Shown piece after piece: positions 11,864-46,309 of a stretch of 64,000 nucleotides of DNA. The DNA is taken from the NCBI RefSeq assembly GCF_003018235.1, contig NZ_CP027437.1; one strand, given 5' to 3'. Every line of letters starts with the position of its first letter. Positions within the stretch are counted from its first letter, which is position 1. The translations under genes and the position numbers were made by a program. This DNA is from Escherichia coli (lineage in GTDB: Bacteria > Pseudomonadota > Gammaproteobacteria > Enterobacterales > Enterobacteriaceae). Under the pieces are notes generated by a model, which made no database searches, had not been told where the DNA came from, and was given only the letters and a program-made list of their open reading frames with translations.

Positions 11864-14800
11864 TCACAGCGCTCGCTCCGGGCAGGCGAAGCGTTGCAAT
11901 AGTCCGCGATCCACTGGGTCAAAATCCCGTCCGGCGGTGATTTCCAGTATCACCCGCCGACCATCAAAGCTGTACTCCACCTGCTGTGTTCCCCGTACCG
12001 CCGTTTCTTGCGCTTTTCCCGCATCCAGCAGGTGAAACAGCGCCCACGGTCCATTAGTCAGCAGCGTCGAGGTGTCCTGGCGGATGCGCGGGCTGGCGGT
12101 TATTTCCGCCATTGAGCCGTTGCGCGGACCCGGCCAGTTAACTTTCAGCGGCCTGACCGGGCCGTGAGCGTAACGCAGTACCTGGCCGTCAATGTCAATC
12201 ACCAGTTCGGTGATGGCCGGGTCCATATCCACGACGCGGACCTGCATCGCCCATGAGAACTTTTTCCCTCCGTCGCCGTTAAAAAACACGCTGCGGATCT
12301 GTTTCGCCTCCTGAAACGGCGTCAGGTCCGGCCCCTGTAAGGTCATGTTGCCTTCGGTCGGTTTGTAGCGCCACGGATTGCTGGCGGTGTCCGCCTGTGG
12401 GGCCAGTTGCTTCGTCCAGAAGGCATCCAGCACGCCGCCGCTGGCAAAGATACGGTTAAAATCGTCCGCGCTGACCTCCTGCGGGCTGTCGGTGAAGGGG
12501 TAGCGCCCGTCGATGGCGTCGCGGCACTCATCACCGATCACCGCTTCCATCTGCGCGTTCAGCACTTCACCGGTGCCGGCGTTGATTTTTCGCGTTCCCT
12601 GCTGCGTGAGATCCAGCAGAATATTTTTCAGCGGCGCGGGCAGTTTTGCCGCCTCCAGTTGCAGTTTATCCGCCGCAGAAATGCGCCCCGGCAGAGTGCT
12701 CGCAGCCAGCGCACTGTCGGCAATGGTGAGCTGAGTGTAATACTCATTGAGCATCGTCAGCAGCGAATTTAATTGCGGCACGCCGCCGCCCTGCCCGCTG
12801 TCCGTCCGCCCGGAAACCACTTCCCGCAGGGCGGCGAAGCGGTCTTCCACCAGTGATTTTTCCAGCCGCTCTTCCGGGTGAATGTCCTGCAACAGCTTCG
12901 CCGTCTGCACCGCTTTTCCCGCATTGCCGGAGAGCCGGTCCTGCGCGCGCTGGGCCATCTGCTTTTGTCTGGCCTGCGCATCCAGAGGCGGCACCAGCGT
13001 GGTCTGCACCACCACCGCTTTACTCAGGCGCATCAGCGGGGAATCCGGCGAGGCCAGAGTGCGGAGCACCTGAAGGTCATACGCTAGTCCAGGGCTACCG
13101 TCCTCCCCGGCGCTGTTGATGCTGTGAATGCTTGCCAGAAAATCCTGCCATCGGCGAGCATATTCAGCCAGGTACAGACGACGTACCTCACGGGTAACCG
13201 GGAGTTCCTGCCCCGGTAGCTGACTCATCACAATATCAGTCGTTTTTTTTTGCGCACTTTCCCGGCCCATCACCCAGGCGTCGTCCGCTGATGCGGCGGC
13301 GACAAACTCCGACAGCCGTTTGTCGAACAGTTCCCGGTAGCCTTCGCGGGTGAAGATGCCGGGCACGCCCCTGTCCAGCGGCGCGCCATCCGTGCGGACA
13401 AAAACCGTTCCCGCATCCGCGCCCACAGCGCGAACCAGCGAAAACTCCTGCGGTGCTTCGCTCTCCATGGAAGCCAGGGCTCGAGTGTAGATACGCTCAG
13501 TGCTGTTATGGCCGTCAAGGAAGGCCCGCGCCTGGCGGATCAGCCCCTCATCTTTTTCCCAGGGCGAATGCACCACGCGGCTGCCGTCAAACAGGGCGTC
13601 AATATGCTCCAGCACGGCTGCGCGACCGCCAAACTCCGCTACGCTGTCGCGGTTGTCCAGATCGTTCAGCACCCAGGCGTGGATCTCCGCCGCGTTGTAT
13701 TTGTCCTCGTGGTCCTTATCGAGGTTCAGCAGCAGATAAACATGCAGGGCGTCATAGGCGGCTTTGCTGTCCTGACGCGCAATCGCATCTGAAAGCACGT
13801 ATTCCATTCGTTTCACCAGCGGAGGGAGCAGTAGCTGGTCCAGCAGGCGGTCATACAGGGATGCGACACTCTCCATCACCGGCGGGACGCTGTAAAGACC
13901 ATAACGCCAGGCCAGCGGCGGCGAGTCCGGGTCCATCCCCGGCCAGGCAGAGAGCGCCCGCGCCTGATTCAGCAGGGCCGGAACAGGCTGCATAGCAGGT
14001 TTTCCGGTATAGGCTTTGACATCACCATCCAGTTGGGTCGTCCGGCTGGCGATTTCATTCAGATAACCGCTGTTACCCTGCTGGCTACCCTGCATTCCCT
14101 GCCACAACCAGAAAACCAGCGCCAATACCAGCAGATGCCCGCCGGTACGCAGCAGGCGATAACGCCAGGCCCATTGAAGATTCGGCTCCACCAGGTGCGC
14201 TTCGCGGAAGATAAACCGCGTCAGTAGATCGTGCAGGAAATAGCTGCGGTTGCCGTCCGGCAGGGTATGGGATGGGGAATCTGCCTTCCCTTTGATCGCC
14301 CGGACAAAACGCTGCCAGATGCCTGTCTGATCGGCCACCGCGTCTGCCTGCGCCTGCGCGGCACTGGTGAAAAATACGCCGCGCAGGGTGTTGTTAAGCT
14401 GGGTAGCATCAAATTTTGAATCGAGGAAAATCTGTTCAATAGCTTCCAGCAGCGGCGCGCCCAGCGCGGCAAATTCACGCGGGAAGCGGTAGAGCCGCTG
14501 ACGGCTTTTAAGGTCGTACTCTTCCTGCAACCGGGTATCCAGCCCCTGATCCAGCCGCTGTGTCAGGTTTGCCAGTTCCCGGCCACAGAGCGCATGCAGC
14601 GACTGCGGATCGCTGGCGTGACGCCTGCGGCTGTAAGGCAGGGTGAAGCCCCAGACCTGGGCTCGCAGGTGACTGGTCAACCCACGGAAATACTCCGTAA
14701 AGCCCGGCAGCAGATCCATCTTGGTGACAACCAGATAGACCGGAAAACGAATGCCCAGCGTCTCCCGCAGTTCCGCCAGCCGCGCACGCAGAGCTGCACA

Positions 14801-24741: not shown

Positions 24742-26223
24742 TTAATCCGTTTCAAAAATAATCTGTTCATCCTCATCAACACGAATGCGGATTTGCGTGA
24801 TGGCCGTTTTCTCTGTCATCGCCTGCAACCAATAACGGGACAGTTGTGGGAGGATATGTTGTTCGATATAGCCGATGAGCAAACGAGCGCCGGTTTCGTG
24901 CATCGGGCAGCGCGACACAATATGCGTAATCAGTTCATCGCCATACACCAGTGAAACGCCATGCTGCTCCGCCATCCGATCCATCAATCTGCCAAGATGC
25001 AGGCGGGCAATAACACCACGCGCGGTCTCATCCAGCGGTAAATAAGGAATAACCGTCACACGCCCCAGGAAAGCCGCCGGGAAGTGTTTACGTAACTCCG
25101 GCATTAACGCCTCTTTTAGTCCTGCCGAATCAGGCATCAGCGCCGGATCCTTTTCGATATGGCGTTTGTACTCGCTCCAAGTGGTTGCGCCGATGGTGCG
25201 CAGGGTGCCACGCGCCAGCGCCGGTTTCAGCAGGTTGGCAGCATCCCCCGTACCGGATGTACCACCAGCGCCCACCAGCGTGTGAACTTCATCAACAAAA
25301 AGGATTACCGGCTGCGGCGAGCGCGCGGCCTCTTCTAGCAACGCTTTCAGGCGGGATTCAAATTCACCCTTCATGGACGCCCCAGCCAGCAGCGCTCCAA
25401 CATCCAGTGACAGCAACCGCACGTTACGCAGTGAAGGCGGTACTTCCCCCCCGGCAATCGCCAGCGCGAATCCTTCCACCACTGCCGTTTTCCCGACTCC
25501 CGCTTCGCCGGTCAGTAGCGGGTTGTTCTGGCGACGGCGCAGCAGAATATCCGTCATAGTACGGATCTCGTGTTCGCGACCGGTGACCGGATCGATATTG
25601 CCTTCACGGGCCAGCGCAGTCATGTCCTGGCAGTATTTCGCCAGCGCGGATTTGCTTCCGGTTGATTCGCCGGCAAAGACCTGGCTAGCTTCCCCCGGTA
25701 CTGCAGAATTTAAATCCGAGCCGTCATAAGGCATTTCTGTTAATTCAGGAGATGAAGTGATTAAAGACGGAAGAATATCTAATAGTTCATCTACCGGTAG
25801 CTCTGCCAATGGCGCACAAATATTTTTTAACACCCGACACAATTCTGGCGTGGTTAACCAGGCAAGTAATAACCATCCACTACGAATTTTTTTATCGCCA
25901 AAGCGGATACTTGCCAACATCCAGGCTTTTTCAACAGAAAGATCGATATGATGGGAAAAATCGTTAATTACACTCGCTCCGGCAGGCAATATATTCAATT
26001 GCTGAATTAACGCCTTCTCAACATCAGCAGATGTTATTTGATAATGTCGAAGCACATTGTGAATGTCATTCTCTGGTTGTTGTATTAACTGATGCAACCA
26101 ATGCGTCAGTTCGACATAAGGATTAGCGCGTAATTTACAGAACGTCGTCGCAGATTCCAAAGATCTAAACAAAGATTTGGTTAGCTTTCCATACAGTGCA
26201 CTGCGCGAAACAGGAGTGTCCAT
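24742..26223 (-). CDS. clpV: ClpV (TssH) AAA+ ATPase with an apparent in-frame internal deletion (N-domain plus first ATPase domain joined to the C-terminal small domain)
   Basis: 493 aa against about 850-900 expected. Walker A GEAGVGKT and Walker B ILFVDEVH of the first domain run to ...IEKDPAL, joined directly to ...[24 protein letters not shown]...GARLL..., the ClpB/ClpV C-terminal signature. Confidence 0.8.
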
Positions 26224-28287: not shown

Positions 28288-28778
28288 GCGCTTCCCGCCA
28301 GCGTCCGGGCAATCACCTGCTGCCCACGCTGTTTGACCGCCTGTGTGATGATGCCCCAAACCAGAAACGCGACCACGATATCAGCGTCAGCCCGGTTCAG
28401 CTTAAGGAGATCATTCGCCGGGATTTGTCATTTCTGCTCAACACCGTCAGCCATGAAGATGATATTGATGCTGCACGTTATCCGGACGCGGCAGCGTCCG
28501 TACTGAACTACGGCCTGCCGCCACTGGCGGGCAGCTTTCTGTATGAACACAAGTGGGACGATATTCGCAGGGCCATTTTGCGTACCATCATCCGGTTTGA
28601 ACCCCGGCTGAAAGCGTCCACCCTGCAAATCATCCCACTTCAGGATGAGCGCCACCAGAGCGGCCATAACACATTACAGTTTGAAATTCGCGGCGAGATC
28701 CTCACGCAGCCCTACCCGATGGCATTCCGGGTACGCAGCGCGCTGGATATGGAACAGAGCCGCATTACGTTTTTTTAA
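28284..28778 (+). CDS. tssE: TssE (gp25-like) baseplate protein
   Basis: 164 aa; the PTLFDRL motif is typical of TssE. Confidence 0.88.
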   Translation: MSASRQRPGNHLLPTLFDRLCDDAPNQKRDHDISVSPVQLKEIIRRDLSFLLNTVSHEDDIDAARYPDAAASVLNYGLPPLAGSFLYEHKWDDIRRAILRTIIRFEPRLKASTLQIIPLQDERHQSGHNTLQFEIRGEILTQPYPMAFRVRSALDMEQSRITFF

Positions 28779-28793
28779 TTCAGAGAGAAACCG

Positions 28794-30677
28794 ATGGATC
28801 CACGGCTACTGGAATACTACAACCGCGAACTGAGCTATCTGCGGGAAACGGGAGCCGAATTTGCCGCCCGTCATCCTAAAGTCGCCGCCCGACTGGGTAT
28901 GCAGGGAACGGATATTGCCGATCCGTATGTGGAGCGAATGGTCGAGGCCTTCAGCTTCCTGACCGCCCGCACGCAGCTAAAAATTGACGCTGAATTCCCC
29001 CGTTTCACCCAGCGTCTGCTGGAAGTGGTCAGCCCCAATTACGTCACACCCACGCCCTCAATGAGCGTGGCGCAGCTTCATCCCGATCCGGAAGAAGGCG
29101 ATCTGGCGAAGGGATTCACCGTCCCGCGCAACACGGCCTTTTTTTCCGCCATTCCGGAAGGCGAAAGTACCGCCTGCCAGTTTCGTAGCAGCCAGAATGT
29201 GACGCTGTGGCCACTTGCCATCGAAGAGGTGCGGCTGACCGCCGCGCCGCCGGATATGCCTGCCCTGCACCGCTACCTGCCAGCCAACATTCACGTCGCT
29301 GGTGCGCTGCGTATTACCCTGCGCACCTTTGGTGAACTGACGTTCAGTCAGCTTGCAGGGCTGAACAAGCTGCCATTTTATCTCTGCGGCGAGGAGCGCA
29401 CGGCCTCACACCTGTTCGAACTACTGCATACCAGCGCCATCGCGAGCCTGGCTGGCATTCCGGGGCATTTTGACGGCGCACTGGATGTGAATCTGAAACA
29501 GCCCGTTATGTACGAAGGCCTGGATCCGGATCAGGGACTGTTGCCGCTGGCGTGGAATGTGTTTCACGGCCATAACCTGCTACATGAATATTTTACCTGT
29601 CCGGAACGCTTCTTTTTTTTCACCCCGACAGGCCTGTCTGCCGGGTTACAGAAAATTAACGGCGGCGTGGCGGAGATTGTTATCCTGCTGAACCGCCTGC
29701 CGCCGGACTGGCTGATCCACCAGACAAACGCGGCACAGTTCAGCCTGTTCTGTACCCCAGTTATCAACCTGTTTCCCCGCGTCGCCGCCCGGATCGATGT
29801 CACGCACAGCACGACGGAACAGCATCTGGTGGTGGACAGAACCCATCCGCTGGATTATGAGGTGTTCTCGGTCCAGGAAGTGGAAGGGCTGGAAACTGAC
29901 ACCACACGGAAGATGGCCTTTCGCCCGCTCTACCACACCCGCAATAATGATGAAGGCAATCACGGACGTTATTTTTCCCTGCGCCGGGAGCCGCGCCGGT
30001 TGTCGGAAAATGCCCGCCGCTATGGCACCCGCACCTCCTATACAGGATCAGAAGTGTTCCTGTCGCTGGTTGACCAGTATGAAGCGCCGTACCCGGAAAA
30101 TCTGCGCCATATCACCATCACGGCTATGGTCACCAACCGCGATCTGCCCTGTCTTATTGCCCGCAATGGACGGGACGATCTGACCGTGGATGCGGCCATC
30201 CCGGTGGCGGGCGTGGGGCTTATCCGTCCGCCGCGTCCGCCGCAGCCTCCGCTGGCTGAACGTGAAATGGCCTGGCGGTTGATCCGCCAGTTATCCTTTA
30301 ACTATCTGCCGCTGGCCGATCTGGATCACCGTACCGGTGGTCAGGCGCTGCGCGATCTGCTTAACCTGTTTATTCCGGCGCATGACAGTCCGCAGTCGCG
30401 CCAGGTGCGCAGCCTGATTGGCTGCAACACCACCCCGGTCACCCGCCGTCTGCCCGGTTCCGGGCTGCTGGTCTATGGGCGCGGCGTCAGTTGTGAACTG
30501 ACCGTGGATGAGGAGGGGTTCTCCGGTATCAGTCCGTATCTGTTCGGTCTGGTGTTGGAGCACTATATCGCCCGTCATGTTTCCATTAATACCTTCTCGC
30601 AGATGACGCTGCACAGCATGCAGCGCGGCAAAATTATGACCTGGCCTGCCAGGGCGGGACAGCGGGGAAGCGTATGA
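28794..30677 (+). CDS. tssF: TssF baseplate protein
   Basis: 627 aa; MDPRLLEYYNRELSYLRETGAEFAARHPKVAARLG is a typical TssF N-terminus. Confidence 0.92.
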   Translation: MDPRLLEYYNRELSYLRETGAEFAARHPKVAARLGMQGTDIADPYVERMVEAFSFLTARTQLKIDAEFPRFTQRLLEVVSPNYVTPTPSMSVAQLHPDPEEGDLAKGFTVPRNTAFFSAIPEGESTACQFRSSQNVTLWPLAIEEVRLTAAPPDMPALHRYLPANIHVAGALRITLRTFGELTFSQLAGLNKLPFYLCGEERTASHLFELLHTSAIASLAGIPGHFDGALDVNLKQPVMYEGLDPDQGLLPLAWNVFHGHNLLHEYFTCPERFFFFTPTGLSAGLQKINGGVAEIVILLNRLPPDWLIHQTNAAQFSLFCTPVINLFPRVAARIDVTHSTTEQHLVVDRTHPLDYEVFSVQEVEGLETDTTRKMAFRPLYHTRNNDEGNHGRYFSLRREPRRLSENARRYGTRTSYTGSEVFLSLVDQYEAPYPENLRHITITAMVTNRDLPCLIARNGRDDLTVDAAIPVAGVGLIRPPRPPQPPLAEREMAWRLIRQLSFNYLPLADLDHRTGGQALRDLLNLFIPAHDSPQSRQVRSLIGCNTTPVTRRLPGSGLLVYGRGVSCELTVDEEGFSGISPYLFGLVLEHYIARHVSINTFSQMTLHSMQRGKIMTWPARAGQRGSV

Positions 30678-31669
30678 GCGACGATTTCACTCAGGCGCAG
30701 GAAACCCCCTGGCGTTACGGTTTTCTGAACCTGATGCGCCGCGTGGATGTGCAGTTGTGTACCGTTCCGGCAGGCAACACCTGGCAACCACGGATGGAAA
30801 AATTTCGCCTCGGACAAACTCCCGCGCTGACCTTTGCGCCACGGGAAATCGCCAGTGTGAGCTGGCAGGAAGAGCGGCTGCACATCAGTTTGTACAGTCT
30901 CGGGCTGTGGGGGCCGAACGGTCCACTGCCGCTGCACTACACCGAACTGGCGCGCAACCGGACTGAAAGCCGAAGAGACCCGACGCTAACCCGTTTTTCT
31001 GATCTTTTTCATCACCGCTGGCTGACGCAGTTTTACCAGGCATGGCGCAGCGCCCAGTCCGCTGGGGGCGGTCTGGATAAACCACAACATGACCGTTTTG
31101 CCTTTTATATCGCCAGCCTCAGCGGGCAGGATTTGCGGGAGAGCGCCGACAGCCCGTTGCCGGATCACGCTCGCCTGGCGGCATCGGCCCATCTGGTGCG
31201 TGAGTCCCGCAATCCGGACGGTCTGGCCACCACGCTGGCGCACTATTTCGGTGTACCTTTCCGGATACAGGAGTATGTCCTGCACTGGATAGCCGTGGCG
31301 GACGATGAGATCACCCGGCTGGGGATGCCAGCCCCCTCTTCCGTTATTGGCAACGGTGCACTCATCGGCCAGGCCGTGCCGGACATGCAGTATAAGTTCC
31401 GGCTGGTTATCGGCCCGCTGACGCTGGAGGATTACCGACGTTTTCTGCCTGGCGGCAATAACCTGCCAGTCCTGACAGAACTGGTCCGCGCCTTTAGCGG
31501 TTTTGAATACTGCTGGGAAATTGAGCTACAGCTAAAGCCCCACGCCGCCCCTCCGGCTGTTACCGGTGGTTCGTACCAACTGGGCTGGACCGCATGGGCG
31601 GGTAAAGCCATGCACGAAAACCCGGTGACGGGCATGATTTTCGAACCAGAACACTACCTGGCGCACTGA
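30674..31669 (+). CDS. tssG: TssG baseplate protein
   Basis: 331 aa; overlaps the tssF stop; typical TssG sequence. Confidence 0.9.
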   Translation: MSDDFTQAQETPWRYGFLNLMRRVDVQLCTVPAGNTWQPRMEKFRLGQTPALTFAPREIASVSWQEERLHISLYSLGLWGPNGPLPLHYTELARNRTESRRDPTLTRFSDLFHHRWLTQFYQAWRSAQSAGGGLDKPQHDRFAFYIASLSGQDLRESADSPLPDHARLAASAHLVRESRNPDGLATTLAHYFGVPFRIQEYVLHWIAVADDEITRLGMPAPSSVIGNGALIGQAVPDMQYKFRLVIGPLTLEDYRRFLPGGNNLPVLTELVRAFSGFEYCWEIELQLKPHAAPPAVTGGSYQLGWTAWAGKAMHENPVTGMIFEPEHYLAH

Positions 31670-31679
31670 GGATAATTTA

Positions 31680-32726
31680 ATGGATACATCCCTGTCTGAC
31701 CCAATTTCGGCAGAATGCCCCTGCGGCCCGGATCTGGAGTACGATCCGGAATACCTGCTACTGTTCACGCGCGCCGCACCGCGTGAAGAAGCGCAATACG
31801 GCGATTTTGTCAGTACGCCGGAAACCATTAACTGGGCGGAGCTTGAGCGGGATGCCTGCCGACTGCTGACGCGCAGCAAAGATATCCGCATTCTGGTTGT
31901 CCTGCTGCGCTGCCGTATCCAGCAGGCCGGTGCCAGGGGACTGGCGGAGGCGCTCGCGCTGCTGGAAACGTTGTGCGCCACGTACCCGAACGCCATCCAT
32001 CCTCAACTGCTCGCGACTGAAGATATCACCGCCGAAGAGGCGGCAGTGGCACGTAGTAACGCCCTGGCGGCATTGCTGGACCATGAAGGCGTAATAGCGG
32101 ATATTCGTGGCATTACACTGTCAAACAATGCTGCCATACGCCTTCAGGTACGGGATGTGGAGCGTTCGCTGTCTGCATCACGCCCGGCGGATGCGCTGGC
32201 ACCAGAATCGGTACGCCAGCAACTGGCCGACCTGGAGGCGCGCGGCACACTGCCGCTGGATGCCTTTCGCCAGGCCGCAGAGACCACTGAGCGGCTGCAA
32301 CGCCATGCGCTTGAAACGCTGAATGACCAGGCACCGAACCTATCCCGTCTGACACAATTGCTGGCCCTGTTGCCGGGAGCGATACGGACCACCACGCCGG
32401 AGATCCTGCCACAACCAGTGGCTGAACAGCCGGAGAGCACCACCATCGTTCATACTGAAGAGATATCATCAGAGCAGATTGCGCTACCGGTGCATATCGC
32501 GGAGGAAATATCACCGATGTCCGGCGCAGAACCCCGGCAGATCCGCGACCGGAACGACGCGCTGGAACGCCTGCGTGTCATCCGTCGCTGGTTTGAGCAC
32601 AGCGAACCGAGCAGCCCGACCATTCCTTTGCTGCGCCAGGCAGAACGCCTGGTCGGAAAACGCTTCTCGGAGGTAATAAATGAAATTCCAGTAGAACTGC
32701 TGGAAAAATGGGATGCGCTGGAGTAA
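31680..32726 (+). CDS. tssA: TssA-family protein (ImpA N-terminal domain)
   Basis: 348 aa; the N-terminal AECPCGPDLEYDPEY motif is typical of ImpA_N; shorter than many TssA proteins. Confidence 0.75.
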   Translation: MDTSLSDPISAECPCGPDLEYDPEYLLLFTRAAPREEAQYGDFVSTPETINWAELERDACRLLTRSKDIRILVVLLRCRIQQAGARGLAEALALLETLCATYPNAIHPQLLATEDITAEEAAVARSNALAALLDHEGVIADIRGITLSNNAAIRLQVRDVERSLSASRPADALAPESVRQQLADLEARGTLPLDAFRQAAETTERLQRHALETLNDQAPNLSRLTQLLALLPGAIRTTTPEILPQPVAEQPESTTIVHTEEISSEQIALPVHIAEEISPMSGAEPRQIRDRNDALERLRVIRRWFEHSEPSSPTIPLLRQAERLVGKRFSEVINEIPVELLEKWDALE

Positions 32727-32732
32727 CAGAAG

Positions 32733-32765
32733 TGGCCAGAATTTATATTATCTGGCCATTTTTTA
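32733..32765 (+). terminator. Rho-independent terminator after tssA
   Basis: Hairpin TGGCCAGA-atttatatta-TCTGGCCA followed by a T-run. Confidence 0.7.
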
Positions 32766-32857
32766 AATCATATTCGTTTTACTTGCGGAGTGAAAAATTC
32801 TCGCTTCACCAAAACGACGAAAGCCCGAATCAGTAATGATTCGGGCTTTCTGAATAT

Positions 32858-32934
32858 TGGCGGAACGGACGGGACTCGAACCCGCGACCCCCTGCGTGAC
32901 AGGCAGGTATTCTAACCGACTGAACTACCGCTCC
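32858..32934 (-). tRNA. aspV: tRNA-Asp (GUC)
   Basis: Reverse complement gives GGAGCGGTAGTTCAGTCGGTTAGAATACCTGCCTGTCACGCAGGGGGTCGCGGGTTCGAGTCCCGTCCGTTCCGCCA; lies next to dnaQ as in K-12. Downstream hairpin at 32821-32848. Confidence 0.97.
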
Positions 32935-33066
32935 GCGTTGTGTTCCGTTGGGAACGAGGCGAATATTACGGATTGCCTCTCCCTTCGTCAACGGTTTTTC
33001 TCATCTTTTGAATCGTTTGCTGCAAAAATCGCCCAAGTCGCTATTTTTAGCGCCTTTTACAGGTAT

Positions 33067-33798
33067 TTATGCCCGCCAGAGGCAGCTTCCCCCCTTCTTC
33101 TGCACCAGATCGAGACGGGCTTCATGTGCTGCAAGCTCTTCATCTGTCGCAAAAACAACGCGTAACTTACTTGCCTGACGCACAATGCGCTGAATTGTTG
33201 TTTCATCTTGTTGCTGTTGTGTCTCTCCTTCCATCGCAAAAGCCATCGACGTTTGCCCACCAGTCATCGCCAGATAAACTTCCGCAAGGATCTGGGCATC
33301 GAGTAATGCCCCGTGCAACGTTCGTTTACTGTTATCTATTTCGTAGCGGGCACATAACGCATCGAGGCTGTTGCGCTTACCGGGAAACATTTTCCTCGCC
33401 ACCGCAAGGCTATCGGTGACCTTACAGAAGGTATTGGTCTTCGGAATATCGCGCTTAAGCAACGAAAACTCGTAGTCCATAAAGCCGATATCGAACGCTG
33501 CGTTATGGATCACCAACTCCGCGCCGCGAATATAGTCCATGAACTCATCGGCTACTTCGGCAAACGTGGGCTTATCGAGCAAAAATTCATCGGCAATACC
33601 ATGTACGCCAAAGGCTTCCGGATCCACCAGCCGATCGGGTTTGAGATAAACATGGAAGTTATTGCCCGTCAGGCGACGGTTCACCACTTCAACGGCACCA
33701 ATCTCAATGATCTTGTGGCCTTCATAGTGCGCGCCAATCTGGTTCATACCGGTAGTTTCGGTATCGAGAACGATCTGGCGTGTAATTGCAGTGCTCAT
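33067..33798 (-). CDS. dnaQ: DNA polymerase III epsilon subunit (3'-5' proofreading exonuclease)
   Basis: [19 protein letters not shown]... matches DnaQ; 243 aa from this start. Confidence 0.95.
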
Positions 33799-33862
33799 AG
33801 CGGTCATTTATGTCAGACTTGTCGTTTTACAGTTCGATTCAATTACAGGAAGTCTACCAGAG

Positions 33863-34330
33863 ATGCTTAAACAGGTAGAAATTTTCACCGATGGTTCGTG
33901 TCTGGGCAATCCTGGACCTGGGGGTTACGGCGCTATTTTACGCTATCGCGGACGCGAGAAAACCTTTAGCGCAGGCTACACCCGCACCACCAACAACCGT
34001 ATGGAGTTGATGGCCGCTATTGTCGCGCTGGAGGCGTTAAAAGAACATTGCGAAGTCATTTTGAGTACCGACAGCCAGTATGTCCGCCAGGGTATCACCC
34101 AGTGGATCCATAACTGGAAAAAACGTGGCTGGAAAACAGCAGACAAAAAACCAGTAAAAAATGTCGATCTCTGGCAACGTCTTGATGCTGCGCTGGGGCA
34201 GCATCAAATCAAATGGGAATGGGTTAAAGGCCATGCCGGACACCCGGAAAACGAACGTTGCGATGAACTAGCTCGTGCCGCAGCGATGAATCCCACACTG
34301 GAAGATACGGGCTATCAAGTCGAAGTTTAA
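33863..34330 (+). CDS. rnhA: Ribonuclease HI
   Basis: [23 protein letters not shown]... is RNase HI; 155 aa; divergent from dnaQ. Confidence 0.95.
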
Positions 34331-35067
34331 GCCTGTGGTTTACGACATTGCCGGGTGGCTCCAACCGCCTGGCGAATTCGTGGCTTGTTTTTACTCTGTT
34401 TCATCGGATTTAGCGTTAAAGGAATAGTCCGTTTCCGGGCGACAATAAGTTGTAAGCAACCAAGCGCAGGAATATGCGCATTCAATAGTTTTCCACCGTG
34501 TTTGTTCCACGGGAGAACGTGGAAACGGCTGGCGTGTAGCACTTCAAAATTCAACAAAGAGAGCCAGTCCAGCTGCCGCATCAGAGTAAACATCCGGCTG
34601 TTATAGGGAGAGGTTTTTCGCAATACCGGCACAAGTTTGCGTAATCCCATTAAACTGATGGGATTGAAGCCACTAATCACCAGCCAGCCATCATCAATCA
34701 ATACCCGATCGGCTTCACGCAATAAACGATGCGGATCGGTGCACCACGGCAATGTATGTGCCAGTAGACAAACATCAACGGATTTATCGGCAAAAGGAAG
34801 ATGAAGTGGGTCCGCCTGCACCTGGACGGGCATTCCTTGCGCAGAAACATTCACTTGATGAGAAACCGCGCACGCTTCGCAATTGATTTCTGCGCTTAAA
34901 TTGCCAATCTTAAGCAGATGAAAACCATACATTTTAGTGAACCACGGGTTGAGCTGGCGCTCCAGCGCCTTGCGATAAAGCTCTCCCCAGGGCAAATCGC
35001 CCCAGCAATCAGGAGCCACGACAGTTTGAGGGACTCTTGCCGGTTTCATCACAACCTTCCGTTTCAC
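34327..35067 (-). CDS. yafS: SAM-dependent methyltransferase YafS
   Basis: Position and sequence consistent with K-12 yafS between rnhA and gloB. Confidence 0.85.
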
Positions 35068-35079
35068 ACTGAGAGGTAA

Positions 35080-35838
<759 letters not shown>

Positions 35839-35909
35839 TAAAACTTTCTTGTCATCGGCTCCGTTCGCCGTTATGATCGGTCGTCTTTTAAGCAACTATT
35901 GACACACAC

Positions 35910-37268
35910 ATGAAGGCAAAAGCGATATTACTCGCCTCTGTCCTGCTCGTGGGTTGCCAGAGTACCGGCAACGTTCAACAGCACGCACAGAGCCTTTCTG
36001 CAGCTGGTCAAGGGGAAGCAGCAAAGTTTACAAGTCAGGCACGATGGATGGACGATGGGACGTCTATCGCGCCAGATGGTGACTTGTGGGCTTTCATTGG
36101 CGACGAGCTAAAGATGGGAATTCCGGAAAATGACCGGATTCGCGAACAGAAACAGAAATATTTACGCAATAAGAGCTATCTCCACGATGTAACTTTACGG
36201 GCAGAGCCGTATATGTACTGGATAGCCGGGCAAGTTAAAAAACGTAACATGCCTATGGAACTGGTACTACTACCCATAGTGGAGAGCGCTTTTGATCCTC
36301 ACGCAACGTCTGGCGCCAATGCAGCAGGCATCTGGCAGATCATTCCGAGCACGGGGCGCAATTATGGTTTGAAACAGACCCGCAATTATGACGCGCGTCG
36401 CGATGTTGTTGCTTCAACAACTGCCGCGCTGAACATGATGCAGCGTCTGAACAAGATGTTTGACGGCGACTGGCTTCTGACCGTAGCGGCTTATAACAGC
36501 GGCGAAGGTCGAGTCATGAAGGCAATTAAAACGAACAAAGCACGTGGGAAATCCACGGACTTTTGGTCGTTACCGTTGCCGCAGGAAACGAAGCAGTACG
36601 TGCCTAAAATGCTGGCATTGAGCGATATTCTCAAAAACAGTAAACGTTATGGTGTACGTCTGCCGACGACCGATGAAAGCCGTGCTCTGGCGCGTGTACA
36701 CCTGAGTAGCCCGGTTGATATGGCGAAGGTTGCAGATATGGCGGGAATTTCCGTCAGCAAGCTGAAGACATTCAACGCTGGTGTGAAAGGCTCCACGCTG
36801 GGCGCAAGTGGCCCGCAGTACGTGATGGTGCCAAAGAAGCATGCAGATCAACTGCGTGAATCTCTGGCTTCGGGCGAAATTGCTGCTGTACAGTCGACGC
36901 TGGTTGCCGACAATACGCCGCTTAACAGCCGTGTTTACACCGTACGCTCTGGCGACACGCTTTCAAGCATCGCTTCACGTCTCGGCGTAAGCACCAAAGA
37001 TTTGCAGCAGTGGAACAAACTGCGCGGCTCTAAGCTGAAACCAGGCCAAAGTCTGACGATTGGCGCAGGTAGTAGCGCACAGCGGTTGGCAAACAACAGC
37101 GATAGCATTACTTATCGTGTGCGCAAAGGCGATTCGCTTTCAAGCATTGCTAAACGCCACGGCGTGAACATCAAAGATGTGATGCGCTGGAACAGCGATA
37201 CTGCGAATCTGCAACCAGGCGATAAGCTGACGTTGTTTGTGAAAAACAACAACATGCCAGATTCCTGA
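35910..37268 (+). CDS. mltD: Membrane-bound lytic murein transglycosylase D (lipoprotein with LysM repeats)
   Basis: 452 aa; lipobox LLVGCQ; C-terminal LysM repeats (YTVRSGDTLSSIA..., YRVRKGDSLSSIA...). Confidence 0.93.
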   Translation: MKAKAILLASVLLVGCQSTGNVQQHAQSLSAAGQGEAAKFTSQARWMDDGTSIAPDGDLWAFIGDELKMGIPENDRIREQKQKYLRNKSYLHDVTLRAEPYMYWIAGQVKKRNMPMELVLLPIVESAFDPHATSGANAAGIWQIIPSTGRNYGLKQTRNYDARRDVVASTTAALNMMQRLNKMFDGDWLLTVAAYNSGEGRVMKAIKTNKARGKSTDFWSLPLPQETKQYVPKMLALSDILKNSKRYGVRLPTTDESRALARVHLSSPVDMAKVADMAGISVSKLKTFNAGVKGSTLGASGPQYVMVPKKHADQLRESLASGEIAAVQSTLVADNTPLNSRVYTVRSGDTLSSIASRLGVSTKDLQQWNKLRGSKLKPGQSLTIGAGSSAQRLANNSDSITYRVRKGDSLSSIAKRHGVNIKDVMRWNSDTANLQPGDKLTLFVKNNNMPDS

Positions 37269-37281
37269 CAAACCAGATAAT

Positions 37282-37312
37282 AAAAGGCACCGATTCCCCC
37301 GGTGCCTTTTTT
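37282..37312. terminator. Putative bidirectional rho-independent terminator between convergent mltD and yafE
   Basis: Hairpin AAAGGCACCG-attcccc-CGGTGCCTTT flanked by A/T runs. Confidence 0.6.
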
Positions 37313-37314
37313 AT

Positions 37315-38085
37315 TTATGCCGCTTTATGTGCTTCTACCATGATGATATCACTGGTGAAAGAGCCATCATTCTGCAAGGCAAAATACGTTTTCACCTCTG
37401 TCGATGCGCTCTGTTGGTAAATGCGAATAGCGTCTACTAACGCTTCTGGCGTACGCATTCTCGCGACCCATGAAGAAAATTCTAGCGGTAACCTATCTGT
37501 AATTAAATTATCAACGATCAGATTGGCTTCATTGATTAACGTCAACCACTCACCGCTGGCGTAGTTTCGTACGTGAGAGATATCGCGTAATGCTTCTACC
37601 GTCTGTAACCAGACGTCGCGCACTGGGTGACCCGGAGACATTACGTCCATCACAATCAGCCTACCGCCAGGTTTCAATATCCTATTCACTTCTCGCAGTG
37701 CTGCACCAACATCATGCCAGTGATGGGCAGAATAACGGCTGATAACAATATCAAATGCGTTATCGGCAAATGGCAGACTTTCGGCATAACCCTGGCGGGT
37801 GGCGATATTTTTCAGTTGCCGGGCTTCGGCAGCTTGTGCCACGACATCCAGCATTTGGGCAGATAAGTCATACGCCACCACCGCGCTCACGTTTTGCGCA
37901 GCGACAAAGCTGGCATGCCCTGCTCCGCAGCCCATATCAAGTACACTTGCATCAGGATAATCAGCCAGACGCACCGCCAGGCGCTGTAAATCTCGCCCGG
38001 ATGCATGTACGGTACTGGTTAAATACTCACTGGCCTGCGAGCTAAACTGCTTTTCTACGTGGTCATGGTGGGATTGTGTTGTCAT
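37315..38085 (-). CDS. yafE: SAM-dependent methyltransferase YafE
   Basis: 256-aa ORF with VLDMGCGAGH motif; conserved position. Confidence 0.85.
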   Translation of the reverse strand: MTTQSHHDHVEKQFSSQASEYLTSTVHASGRDLQRLAVRLADYPDASVLDMGCGAGHASFVAAQNVSAVVAYDLSAQMLDVVAQAAEARQLKNIATRQGYAESLPFADNAFDIVISRYSAHHWHDVGAALREVNRILKPGGRLIVMDVMSPGHPVRDVWLQTVEALRDISHVRNYASGEWLTLINEANLIVDNLITDRLPLEFSSWVARMRTPEALVDAIRIYQQSASTEVKTYFALQNDGSFTSDIIMVEAHKAA

Positions 38086-38161
38086 TGCGCTGTCCTTTTA
38101 TTGTTTGATTAAAAAGGGCAGCGCCAAACGTTGGTCTGCCCTGTGGCAGACCTGACATACC

Positions 38162-39013
<852 letters not shown>

Positions 39014-39202
39014 CTACTGTTATAGGGATTTTAGCTCACTCTTTCAACGAGCAATTGTATATTGTTATGTAAGCAAGTGCTTACACCGGTCAGAAATTTG
39101 CTCATTATTGAGAACATTAAATCGGATGACATATCACGCATCCTGATGGTTTAATGACAAATAAATTCAAAATATCTCATCTATTTTGCAACAGGAGCAA
39201 AA

Positions 39203-40117
39203 ATGAAAGCCACGTCGGAAGAACTCGCCATTTTTGTTTCGGTCGTCGAAAGCGGCAGCTTTAGCCGGGCAGCGGAACAATTAGGGCAAGCAAACTCAGC
39301 GGTAAGCCGGGCGGTGAAAAAGCTGGAGATGAAACTTGGCGTTAGCCTGCTTAATCGCACCACGCGACAACTTAGCCTAACGGAAGAAGGCGAGCGTTAT
39401 TTTCGTCGCGTACAGTCAATTTTGCAGGAGATGGCAGCGGCAGAATCAGAAATTATGGAGACGCGTAATACACCGCGTGGACTGTTGCGCATCGATGCCG
39501 CAACTCCAGTGGTGCTGCACTTTCTGATGCCGTTAATTAAGCCTTTCCGTGAACGCTATCCGGAAGTCACTTTATCGCTAGTCTCCTCCGAAACGATTAT
39601 TAATTTGATCGAAAGAAAAGTGGATGTCGCGATACGCGCTGGTACGTTAACGGATTCCAGCTTACGTGCCAGGCCGTTATTTAACAGTTATCGAAAAATT
39701 ATCGCCTCCCCCGATTATATTTCCCGCTACGGGAAGCCAGAAACGATCGACGATTTAAAGCAACATGTTTGCCTGGGATTCACTGAACCCGCTTCCCTCA
39801 ATACCTGGCCGATAGCCTGTAGTGATGGACAATTACATGAGGTGAAGTACGGTTTGTCATCCAATAGTGGGGAAACACTGAAACAGCTTTGCCTGAGTGG
39901 CAACGGGATTGCGTGTTTGTCCGACTACATGATCGACAGAGAAATCGCTCGCGGAGAATTGGTGGAGTTAATGGCAGATAAAGTATTGCCAGTGGAAATG
40001 CCATTTAGTGCAGTCTATTACAGCGACCGTGCGGTAAGTACGCGCATCCGGGCTTTTATCGATTTCCTTAGCGAGCATGTAAAAACAGCTCCCGGAGGAG
40101 CTGTCAGAGAGGCTTAA
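39203..40117 (+). CDS. yafC: LysR-family transcriptional regulator YafC
   Basis: 304 aa; N-terminal helix-turn-helix ([32 protein letters not shown]). Confidence 0.9.
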
Positions 40118-40916
40118 TCCCATTCAGGAGCCAGACCTTCCGGGCTAACCAGGCGATCGTTGCAATCCAGTGCGGCGATCGCTTTTTTATCTTCGGCATC
40201 AAGCTGTAAATTTTGTGCCTTAAGATTACTTTCCAGGTTTTTACGTTTAGTAGAAGAAGGAATTACGGAGTAACCTTCCCCCATAGCCCACGCCAGAATC
40301 ACTTGTGCCGGAGTCGCATTGTGTTTAGCTGCGATACGAGCAATAACCTCATCTTTCAGGGCCTTACCATACGCCAGTGTCATATAGGAAGTAATATGGA
40401 TGCCGTGCTGTTTAGCCAGGCAACCACTTTACGGTTTTGCAGATAAGGAGAGAGTTCAATCTGGTTAGTAGCGATGTTTTCAGCGCCAACAGCAGCAATC
40501 GCCTTTTCCATCAATGGGATCGTGAAGTTGGAAATACCGATCTCACGCGTCAGCCCTTGTTTTTTGGCTTCCAGCAGCGCCTGCATAAACTCTTCAACAG
40601 AGACTTCATCGTTTGGTGACGGCCAGTGGATTAGCGTCAGATCAACATAATCGATACGCAATTTTTGCAGGCTCTCTTTCAGACTCGGGATCAATTTGTC
40701 TTTGCTGAGATTTTCAATCCAGATTTTAGTGGTGATGTAGAGTTCATGACGTGGCACGCCACTTTCTGCAATCGCGTGACCTACTGCGGCTTCGTTATCA
40801 TAGATTTGTGCGGTATCAATTGCGCGATAACCAAGTTCAAGCGCCGTTTTCACAGATGAAATAACAACGTCGTCTTTCAGACGGAAAGTACCTAAACCAA
40901 ATGCAGGGATAGCCAT
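40114..40916 (-). pseudogene. dkgB: dkgB (2,5-diketo-D-gluconate reductase B) interrupted by a 1-bp frameshift
   Basis: Two ORFs (40380-40916 and 40114-40383) together span an aldo-keto reductase; the +1 frame continues ...[21 protein letters not shown]... across the break near 40416; one C appears missing in AGCC(C)AGG. Confidence 0.8.
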
Positions 40917-41076
40917 AATATGCCTCTTTTAATGCTTTTCGTTAACTGAGGTGATTATGGGCTTCAGACTGTTGCGGAAAAAGAGCGTAAAACGCAGAGG
41001 ATTTTTGCGATTCTGGCAATAATAGATATCCAGACGAAAAAAAACCTCGAGCGTTAACTCGAGGATTCTTAATAAG

Positions 41077-41153
41077 TGGCGGAACGGACGGGACTCGAAC
41101 CCGCGACCCCCTGCGTGACAGGCAGGTATTCTAACCGACTGAACTACCGCTCC
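41077..41153 (-). tRNA. aspU: tRNA-Asp (GUC), distal gene of the rrnH operon
   Basis: Identical to the aspV tRNA sequence; follows the 5S rRNA; downstream hairpin (CCTCGAGCGTTAACTCGAGG) at about 41044-41063. Confidence 0.97.
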
Positions 41154-41205
41154 ACCGAATTCTTTTACAACCACCGGTTTTATGACCGGCTTACTGCTTA
41201 ATTTG

Positions 41206-41325
41206 ATGCCTGGCAGTTCCCTACTCTCGCATGGGGAGACCCCACACTACCATCGGCGCTACGGCGTTTCACTTCTGAGTTCGGCATGGGGTCAGGTGGG
41301 ACCACCGCGCTAAGGCCGCCAGGCA
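41206..41325 (-). rRNA. rrfH: 5S ribosomal RNA
   Basis: Reverse complement matches E. coli 5S rRNA (TGCCTGGCGGCC ... GCCAGGCAT), 120 nt. Confidence 0.97.
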
Positions 41326-41416
41326 AATTCTGTTTCATCAGACCGCTTCTGCGTTCTGATTTAATCTGTATCAGGCTGAAAATCTTCTCTCATCCGCCAA
41401 AACAGCTTCGGCGTTG

Positions 41417-44321
<2,905 letters not shown>

Positions 44322-44504
44322 TCACAACCCGAAGATGTTTCTTTCGATTCATCATCGTGTTGCGAAAATTTGAGAGACTCACGAACAACTTTCGTTGTTC
44401 AGTGTTTCAATTTTCAGCTTGATCCAGATTTTTAAAGAGCAAAACTTCGCAGTGAACCTTTGCAGGTACACTCTGAAATATTTTTTATTTAATCACTACA
44501 GAGA

Positions 44505-44580
44505 TGGTGGAGCTATGCGGGATCGAACCGCAGACCTCCTGCGTGCAAAGCAGGCGCTCTCCCAGCTGAGCTATAGCCCC
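44505..44580 (-). tRNA. alaV: tRNA-Ala (UGC), 16S-23S spacer
   Basis: Reverse complement GGGGCTATAGCTCAGCTGGGAGAGCGCCTGCTTTGCACGCAGGAGGTCTGCGGTTCGATCCCGCATAGCTCCACCA. Confidence 0.97.
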
Positions 44581-44622
44581 ATAACATGTAGTTAAAACCT
44601 CTTCAAATTTGCGGTGCAAATT

Positions 44623-44699
<77 letters not shown>

Positions 44700-44767
44700 G
44701 TAGAGGTTTTACTGCTCATTTTCATCAGACAATCTGTGTGAGCACTGCAAAGTACGCTTCTTTAAGG

Positions 44768-46309
<1,542 letters not shown>

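Follow-up and report, generated by a model that had tools for sequence, protein, structure and literature searches.

A recent frameshift in dkgB, linked to a two-base leader deletion, in a small sub-clade of Escherichia coli

The dkgB locus

The 64,000-nucleotide stretch of Escherichia coli DNA analysed here (the window) carries dkgB, also named yafB, on its minus strand, with a complete rrn operon directly upstream. The order of rrn operon, tRNA-Asp, dkgB, convergent yafC and yafD was read from Rfam matches and the map of open reading frames (ORFs), and it is the order annotated by RefSeq in two complete genomes, those of strains Res13-Lact-PER13-34 (L001) and MEI003 (L014). The coordinates of the individual features are collected in Table 1. 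The YafC protein is 100% identical to that of the references. No gene lies 3' of dkgB in its transcription unit and, because dkgB is the last gene of that unit, no polar effect of a lesion in it is expected. Within the rrn operon, an Rfam match to StyR-44 occupies 44329-44437 of the 16S-23S spacer, directly upstream of the 23S gene, and a few 1-bp indels relative to MEI003 fall at 41351-41392, in the 23S-5S spacer.

The product of dkgB, an NADPH-dependent 2,5-didehydrogluconate/methylglyoxal/glyoxal reductase, is counted among the five aldo-keto reductases of E. coli that act on glyoxal and methylglyoxal (PMC5297802). A megablast search with positions 40050-41000 matched 5,419 of the 5,426 complete RefSeq E. 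coli genomes, at features annotated as dkgB and yafC, and the label of core gene that a sequence-only reading had given to dkgB is thus a fair one. Every reference match in that search spans 954 bp, whereas the window query spans 951 bp.

Table 1. Features of the dkgB locus and of the adjoining rrn operon in the window.
Feature	Position	Strand	Description	Evidence
yafC, LysR-type regulator, 304 aa	39203..40117	+	convergent, 4-nt overlap with the 3' end of dkgB, intact	ORF list, RefSeq annotation
dkgB 3' fragment	40114..40383	-	89-aa ORF, M179 to D267	ORF list, NF008377
dkgB 5' fragment	40380..40916	-	178-aa ORF; codons 1-167 native, then 11 out-of-frame codons and a TGA stop	ORF list, alignments, NF008377
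1-bp deletion site	40416..40417		plus strand CC, CCC in all intact alleles; coding strand TGGGCT -> TGGCT, codons W167/A168	alignments
Stronger predicted NsrR 11-mer, AAGAGGCATAT	40918..40928	-	overlaps the Shine-Dalgarno sequence, intact in the window	sequence, PMC5320621 Table 2
Remnant of the weaker predicted NsrR 11-mer	40930..40938	-	AAATAGCATTA -> AAAAGCATTA after TA loss	alignments, PMC5320621 Table 2
Upstream boundary of the dkgB control region	41045..41153	-	tRNA-Asp 41080-41153 and intrinsic terminator 41064-41045	Rfam, terminator scan
Complete rrn operon	41080-46309	-	directly upstream of dkgB	
5S gene	41208-41323	-	rrn operon	
23S gene	41418-44321	-	rrn operon	
Spacer tRNAs (two)	44508-44699	-	rrn operon	
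16S gene	44768-46309	-	rrn operon	

The frameshift

The ORF list presents dkgB as two ORFs of 178 and 89 amino acids, and the stop of the former and the start of the latter overlap as ATGA. When the locus was aligned with the intact dkgB of two complete genomes, O169:H41 strain Res13-Lact-PER13-34 and strain 2012C-4502 (L002), only two gaps were found, namely one G missing from the coding sequence and a TA missing from the 5' leader. Apart from the missing G, the coding sequence of the window differs from that of Res13-Lact-PER13-34 at one site, GAC -> GAT. As this sole substitution is synonymous, the repaired translation of the window is the 267-aa protein of that strain (WP_024230289.1).

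The alignments bear out what had been read from the letters alone, which was an aldo-keto reductase frame that is continuous except for a 1-bp shift near 40416, a single-base deletion as its cause and the end of the first ORF 11 codons past the shift. It had also been stated that the downstream ORF resumes the native sequence, and this holds; its label as the +1 frame does not, since in the direction of translation it is the -1 (=+2) frame. The G was most likely lost from the GGG run by replication slippage. Its loss shifts the frame after W167, and translation then runs through 11 further codons to a stop.

Coding capacity of the two fragments

The NCBIfam DkgB equivalog NF008377 (profile length 267, curated cutoff 327 bits) scores 530.3 bits against an intact sister allele, over positions 1-267. 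The 178-aa ORF still reaches 336.7 bits, which is above the cutoff but covers only profile positions 1-171, and the 89-aa ORF scores 158.5 bits on positions 179-267, below the cutoff. Because each fragment covers only part of the profile, the locus is dkgB by descent without encoding any single full-length DkgB product. Intact dkgB alleles are 98-99.7% identical to that of the window at the nucleotide level. The locus shares with K-12 DkgB/YafB (NF008377) its position between the tRNA-Asp of the rrn operon and the convergent yafC, and differs from it in lacking one base at codons 167/168 and 2 bp in the leader.

The catalytic residues were placed by alignment with the structural homologues 3UP8, 1A80 and 1MZR, the motifs being positioned from 1A80 and 3UP8. 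The tetrad D34/Y39/K64/H97 that characterises the aldo-keto reductases (PF00248) is retained in the 178-aa ORF, and its residues pair in an ungapped alignment with positions 44, 49, 74 and 107 of the 1A80 chain; these we take to be Asp45, Tyr50, Lys75 and His108. With Corynebacterium 2,5-DKG reductase A (1A80) and the putative DkgB 3UP8, the window shares the (alpha/beta)8 aldo-keto reductase fold, the tetrad region being ungapped over residues 2-105, and a C-terminal cofactor motif of the K-S-x-x-R-x-x-E-N type that aligns with native residues 219-231. This NADPH 2'-phosphate-binding motif falls in the 89-aa ORF. Native residues 168-178, the strand before the split, are encoded by neither ORF. 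Thus, whereas 1A80 and 3UP8 are full-length active enzymes, the fold in the window lies in two non-contiguous pieces that are 11 residues short, and no single polypeptide carries the complete (alpha/beta)8 barrel together with the C-terminal NADPH-binding segment.

The 178-aa product would lack the last quarter of the barrel, and the 89-aa remainder would be made at best through weak reinitiation at the overlapping ATGA. Judging from the fold, no active enzyme is expected and the allele is expected to be null, because residues 168-178 are lost from both pieces and the tetrad and the cofactor motif lie on separate ones. Detoxification of methylglyoxal and glyoxal in E. coli is redundant, with YqhE, YafB, YghZ, YeaE, YajO and YqhD acting alongside glyoxalase (PMC5297802), and since E. 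coli has these alternatives to YafB, the loss of dkgB should be tolerated.

The leader deletion

The second gap, which is absent from the earlier description of this locus, is the loss of TA from the minus strand between 40935 and 40936, 20 nt upstream of the dkgB ATG. It is private to the sub-clade that carries the frameshift. In strain CFT073, NsrR ChIP-seq gave a peak between aspU and dkgB that contains two predicted 11-mers, AAATAGCATTA at 18 nt from the dkgB start codon with a PatSer score of 4.63, and AAGAGGCATAT at 6 nt from it with a score of 8.32 (PMC5320621 Table 2). The leader of the intact sister genomes reads ...CGAAAATAGCATTAAAAGAGGCATATTATG, identical to these published motifs, and that of the window reads ...CGAAAAGCATTAAAAGAGGCATATTATG. 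Compared by sequence identity, the first predicted motif of the window is therefore 2 nt short, while its GCATT core, the Shine-Dalgarno sequence and the distance to the stronger motif are all unchanged. A simple sigma-70 scan of positions 40000-41150 returned no promoter-like site.

Deletions in this region have been obtained in the laboratory. In the portion of PMC5297802 that summarises Kwon et al. (2012), deletions in the aspU-dkgB intergenic region are said to have removed NsrR and Fnr sites, caused overexpression of YafB and given resistance to glyoxal. The lesion in the window resembles these mutations, as summarised there, in that they too, whether small or multi-base, delete part of this intergenic region. 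It differs in its likely consequence, because the laboratory mutations are described in that summary as having removed repressor sites or fused yafB to rrn, raising expression of an intact enzyme, whereas the window has lost 2 bp at the edge of one predicted half-site and encodes a truncated enzyme.

Recurrence of the deletions in related assemblies

Draft genomes of the same lineage were recovered through two strain-specific proteins of the window, a 493-aa TssH and a variant of GloB. Both deletions were found again in one NCBI draft, GCA_016625795.1 (L025), which matches positions 28583-41198 of the window over 12,616 bp with a single SNP, 32170 T>A. This SNP changes codon 164 of an ImpA-family gene of the type VI secretion system (T6SS), which reads CTG (Leu) in the window but CAG (Gln) in the draft. 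As the SNP separates the two assemblies, neither is a copy of the other. The draft has no called dkgB protein, as expected for a pseudogene under PGAP, and two further similar places were also reported. Both deletions are also present in a Logan assembly of run SRR21507360 (L003), which matches the window with 100% identity over 3,726 bp, and a look-up in the protein collection placed the exact 178-aa product on three Logan contigs. That the window, the NCBI draft and the Logan data are independent datasets is suggested by the SNP difference and by their unrelated series of accessions.

The remainder of the window was compared with its nearest complete references. Between positions 14001 and 40100 the sole indel relative to MEI003 is a 1,152-bp in-frame deletion inside tssH, and between 46402 and 64000 the sole indels relative to strain Rb-50 (L015) are one compensating +1/-1 pair. 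The remaining indels of the window against its nearest references are the two in dkgB and the few in the rrn spacer. No frame-breaking indel other than that of dkgB was thus found in the approximately 44 kb aligned to the nearest complete references, and because this census against MEI003 and Rb-50 is clean, the assembly of the window is not riddled with errors. The leader deletion, moreover, is not a typical read error because it removes 2 bp outside any homopolymer.

Age and distribution

Three close relatives, all belonging to the clade that shares the GloB variant of the window, retain an intact leader and an intact dkgB of 267 aa. These are a Logan assembly of run SRR3033418 (L026) with 0 SNPs relative to the window in 8,204 bp, GCA_014070295.1 (L023) with 1 SNP in 7,084 bp, and GCA_012768955.1 (L024) with 3 SNPs in 12,648 bp. 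The disruption therefore behaves as a heritable pseudogene, being reproduced in the NCBI draft L025 and the Logan assembly L003 while intact orthologues persist in these three sisters. When 61- and 66-base probes were required to match exactly over their full length, neither deletion was found in any of the 5,426 complete RefSeq E. coli genomes. Since sisters at 0-3 SNPs keep the intact gene and the deletions are absent from complete genomes, the dkgB lesion is very recent and limited to a small sub-clade of one E. coli lineage, probably comprising three or four sequenced isolates. The frameshift and the leader deletion always co-occur, and no intermediate with only one of them was present among the assemblies compared.

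The window is 98.4-99.4% identical to complete E. coli genomes. Genome-wide decay of the Shigella type was considered as a context for the lesion and is not supported, as the window is E. coli and, apart from tssH with its internal deletion, contains no other broken gene in the regions compared.

Disrupted dkgB in other lineages

A literature search found no paper that describes pseudogenisation of dkgB. Nevertheless, the gene is disrupted elsewhere in the species. In a group of KTE and NCTC strains (L004-L006, L008, L010, L012 and L013; examples of the disrupted allele are GCA_000407985.1 and SCU-172), a 768-bp IS1 has inserted into dkgB and duplicated 9 bp of target at nt 519-527. The IS1 allele gives a 182-aa ORF and an 89-aa ORF identical to that of the window. 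The identical 89-aa ORF is recorded on 377 contigs, mainly because IS1-disrupted alleles yield the same C-terminal ORF call. As the exact IS1 junction occurs in just 3 of the 5,426 complete genomes, this allele is not a common polymorphism. It resembles the case described here as an independent inactivation of the same gene, located approximately 25 nt downstream of the window lesion, and differs from it in being an insertion with target duplication rather than a frameshift, and in belonging to another lineage.

Single-base losses in dkgB were also seen in long-read NCTC assemblies, at nt 291 and 440 in GCA_900450075.1 (L007), at nt 414 in GCA_900448195.1 (L009) and at approximately nt 497-500 in GCA_900448355.1 (L011). 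The last of these lies in the same TGGG run as the window lesion, on a different SNP background, in an assembly in which yafC is also split. At least some of these losses are probably long-read homopolymer errors.

Other lineage alleles in the window

Two further alleles of this lineage were observed. The gene tssH (clpV) of the T6SS cluster, at 24742-26223 on the minus strand, encodes 493 aa, compared with 877 aa in the nearest complete genome, MEI003. It is shortened by the 1,152-bp in-frame deletion, which lies between two direct repeats of approximately 15 bp, CAGCGCCGGATCCT, and removes approximately one AAA+ domain. The exact 493-aa TssH was found on at least 24 contigs in 31 blocks, and because it is shared by so many contigs it represents an allele of the lineage rather than a fault of assembly. 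In this lineage the T6SS may be defective.

The second allele concerns GloB (glyoxalase II), in which codon 75 at 35305 on the plus strand is Tyr (TAT), as opposed to His (CAT) in eight related genomes. We assume that residue 75 is not among the canonical metal ligands, which we take to be those of the THxHxDH motif and related positions. The Tyr75 variant is common to approximately 26 assembly blocks and so marks a wider clade than the dkgB lesion. That GloB belongs to the methylglyoxal-detoxification network in which DkgB also acts is probably coincidental.

Discussion

We consider it very probable that dkgB is represented in this sub-clade by a genuine, recently arisen loss-of-function allele whose frame was broken by the loss of one G. 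The sequence-only reading had offered two explanations for the split, a true pseudogene and a homopolymer read error, and it is the former that is supported by the same deletion in L025 and L003, by the 178-aa product on three Logan contigs and by the clean census of approximately 44 kb. Under the latter, the genome would truly read CCC and an under-called homopolymer would mimic a frameshift. The lesion does sit in a 3-base homopolymer, and some platforms can err at this GGG run, as it is also shortened in the NCTC PacBio assembly L011, which has further probable homopolymer errors and is one of several long-read NCTC assemblies with single-base losses in dkgB. However, a read error would have to be repeated in an independent draft one SNP away and in Logan contigs from three runs, it would have to coincide with a linked 2-bp deletion that lies in no homopolymer, and it would have to be the only frame-breaking event of its kind in the aligned part of the window. 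These observations strongly disfavour an artefact and make it very improbable. Nor is it credible, in our judgement, that dkgB remains functional through ribosomal frameshifting, transcriptional slippage or assembly of a split enzyme from two fragments. The overlap of the first stop with the ATG of the second ORF might permit some reinitiation, and both fragments still match the aldo-keto reductase domain. Yet the 16-codon interval that runs from the upstream stop in the -1 frame to the stop of the first ORF contains neither an X XXY YYZ slippery heptamer nor a long A/T run or homopolymer, and the second ORF is not preceded by a Shine-Dalgarno sequence. The split is also not conserved, being restricted to one sub-clade with intact sisters, and the 11 residues from 168 to 178 would be missing from any enzyme rebuilt from the two pieces. 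Recoding and a split enzyme were rejected on these grounds.

Accepting that the allele is a true pseudogene, it may still be asked why one small locus was hit twice. In approximately 60 kb of pairwise comparisons within the clade there are 5 SNPs, and the only indels are the two dkgB deletions; these lie 520 bp apart, on a branch whose surrounding 8.2 kb shows 0 SNPs (L026 compared with the window). With a SNP density of approximately 1e-4 per bp and an indel:SNP ratio of approximately 1:10, the probability that one indel would be joined by a second, neutral one in the same 0.9-kb locus is roughly estimated at 0.01, a value that is suggestive but not conclusive. It is conceivable, although we regard it as unlikely, that inactivation was selected, with operator or leader and coding sequence both struck because loss or re-tuning of dkgB was advantageous in the sub-clade. 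It is possible that the leader mutation altered NsrR control and that an NADPH-consuming enzyme then became costly; it is also possible that a truncated protein was harmful and that its expression was then lowered. Apart from the proximity and constant co-occurrence of two private deletions, selection would be in keeping with the position of the 2-bp loss in a predicted NsrR motif beneath a ChIP-seq peak, with the altered YafB expression and glyoxal resistance that upstream deletions at this locus confer according to the summary in PMC5297802, and with the independent breakage of dkgB by IS1 and by other frameshifts elsewhere. On the other hand, only two events are available and no intermediate genotype orders them, and the regulatory effect of the leader deletion may be nil because that deletion spares the GCATT core and does not alter the distance to the stronger motif. 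A second lesion would also be neutral once the gene was dead, so that neutral decay following the first hit is possible, and clustered mutations can arise from one error-prone repair tract, which possibly produced both deletions at once. Should selection nonetheless be the correct explanation, dkgB would be a recurrent target of adaptive loss, for example through saving of NADPH or through altered handling of aldehyde or nitrosative stress.

Conclusion

The dkgB case is one of ordinary gene decay, a recent, clade-restricted frameshift pseudogene of a well-known and dispensable gene, of a kind that standard annotation practice covers. Its sole notable point, and a mildly notable one, is the 2-bp deletion linked to it in a leader where an NsrR ChIP-seq peak is published for CFT073. 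For annotation, the locus should be flagged as a frameshifted dkgB pseudogene; it should neither be entered as a pair of aldo-keto reductase genes nor be "corrected" on the assumption of an assembly error. Together, the two deletions provide a handy marker of the small sub-clade. Should the double hit reflect selection, it would represent a minor case of adaptive loss within a redundant aldehyde-detoxification network. The strain is expected to depend on DkgA, YqhD, other aldo-keto reductases and glyoxalase for the detoxification of methylglyoxal and glyoxal.
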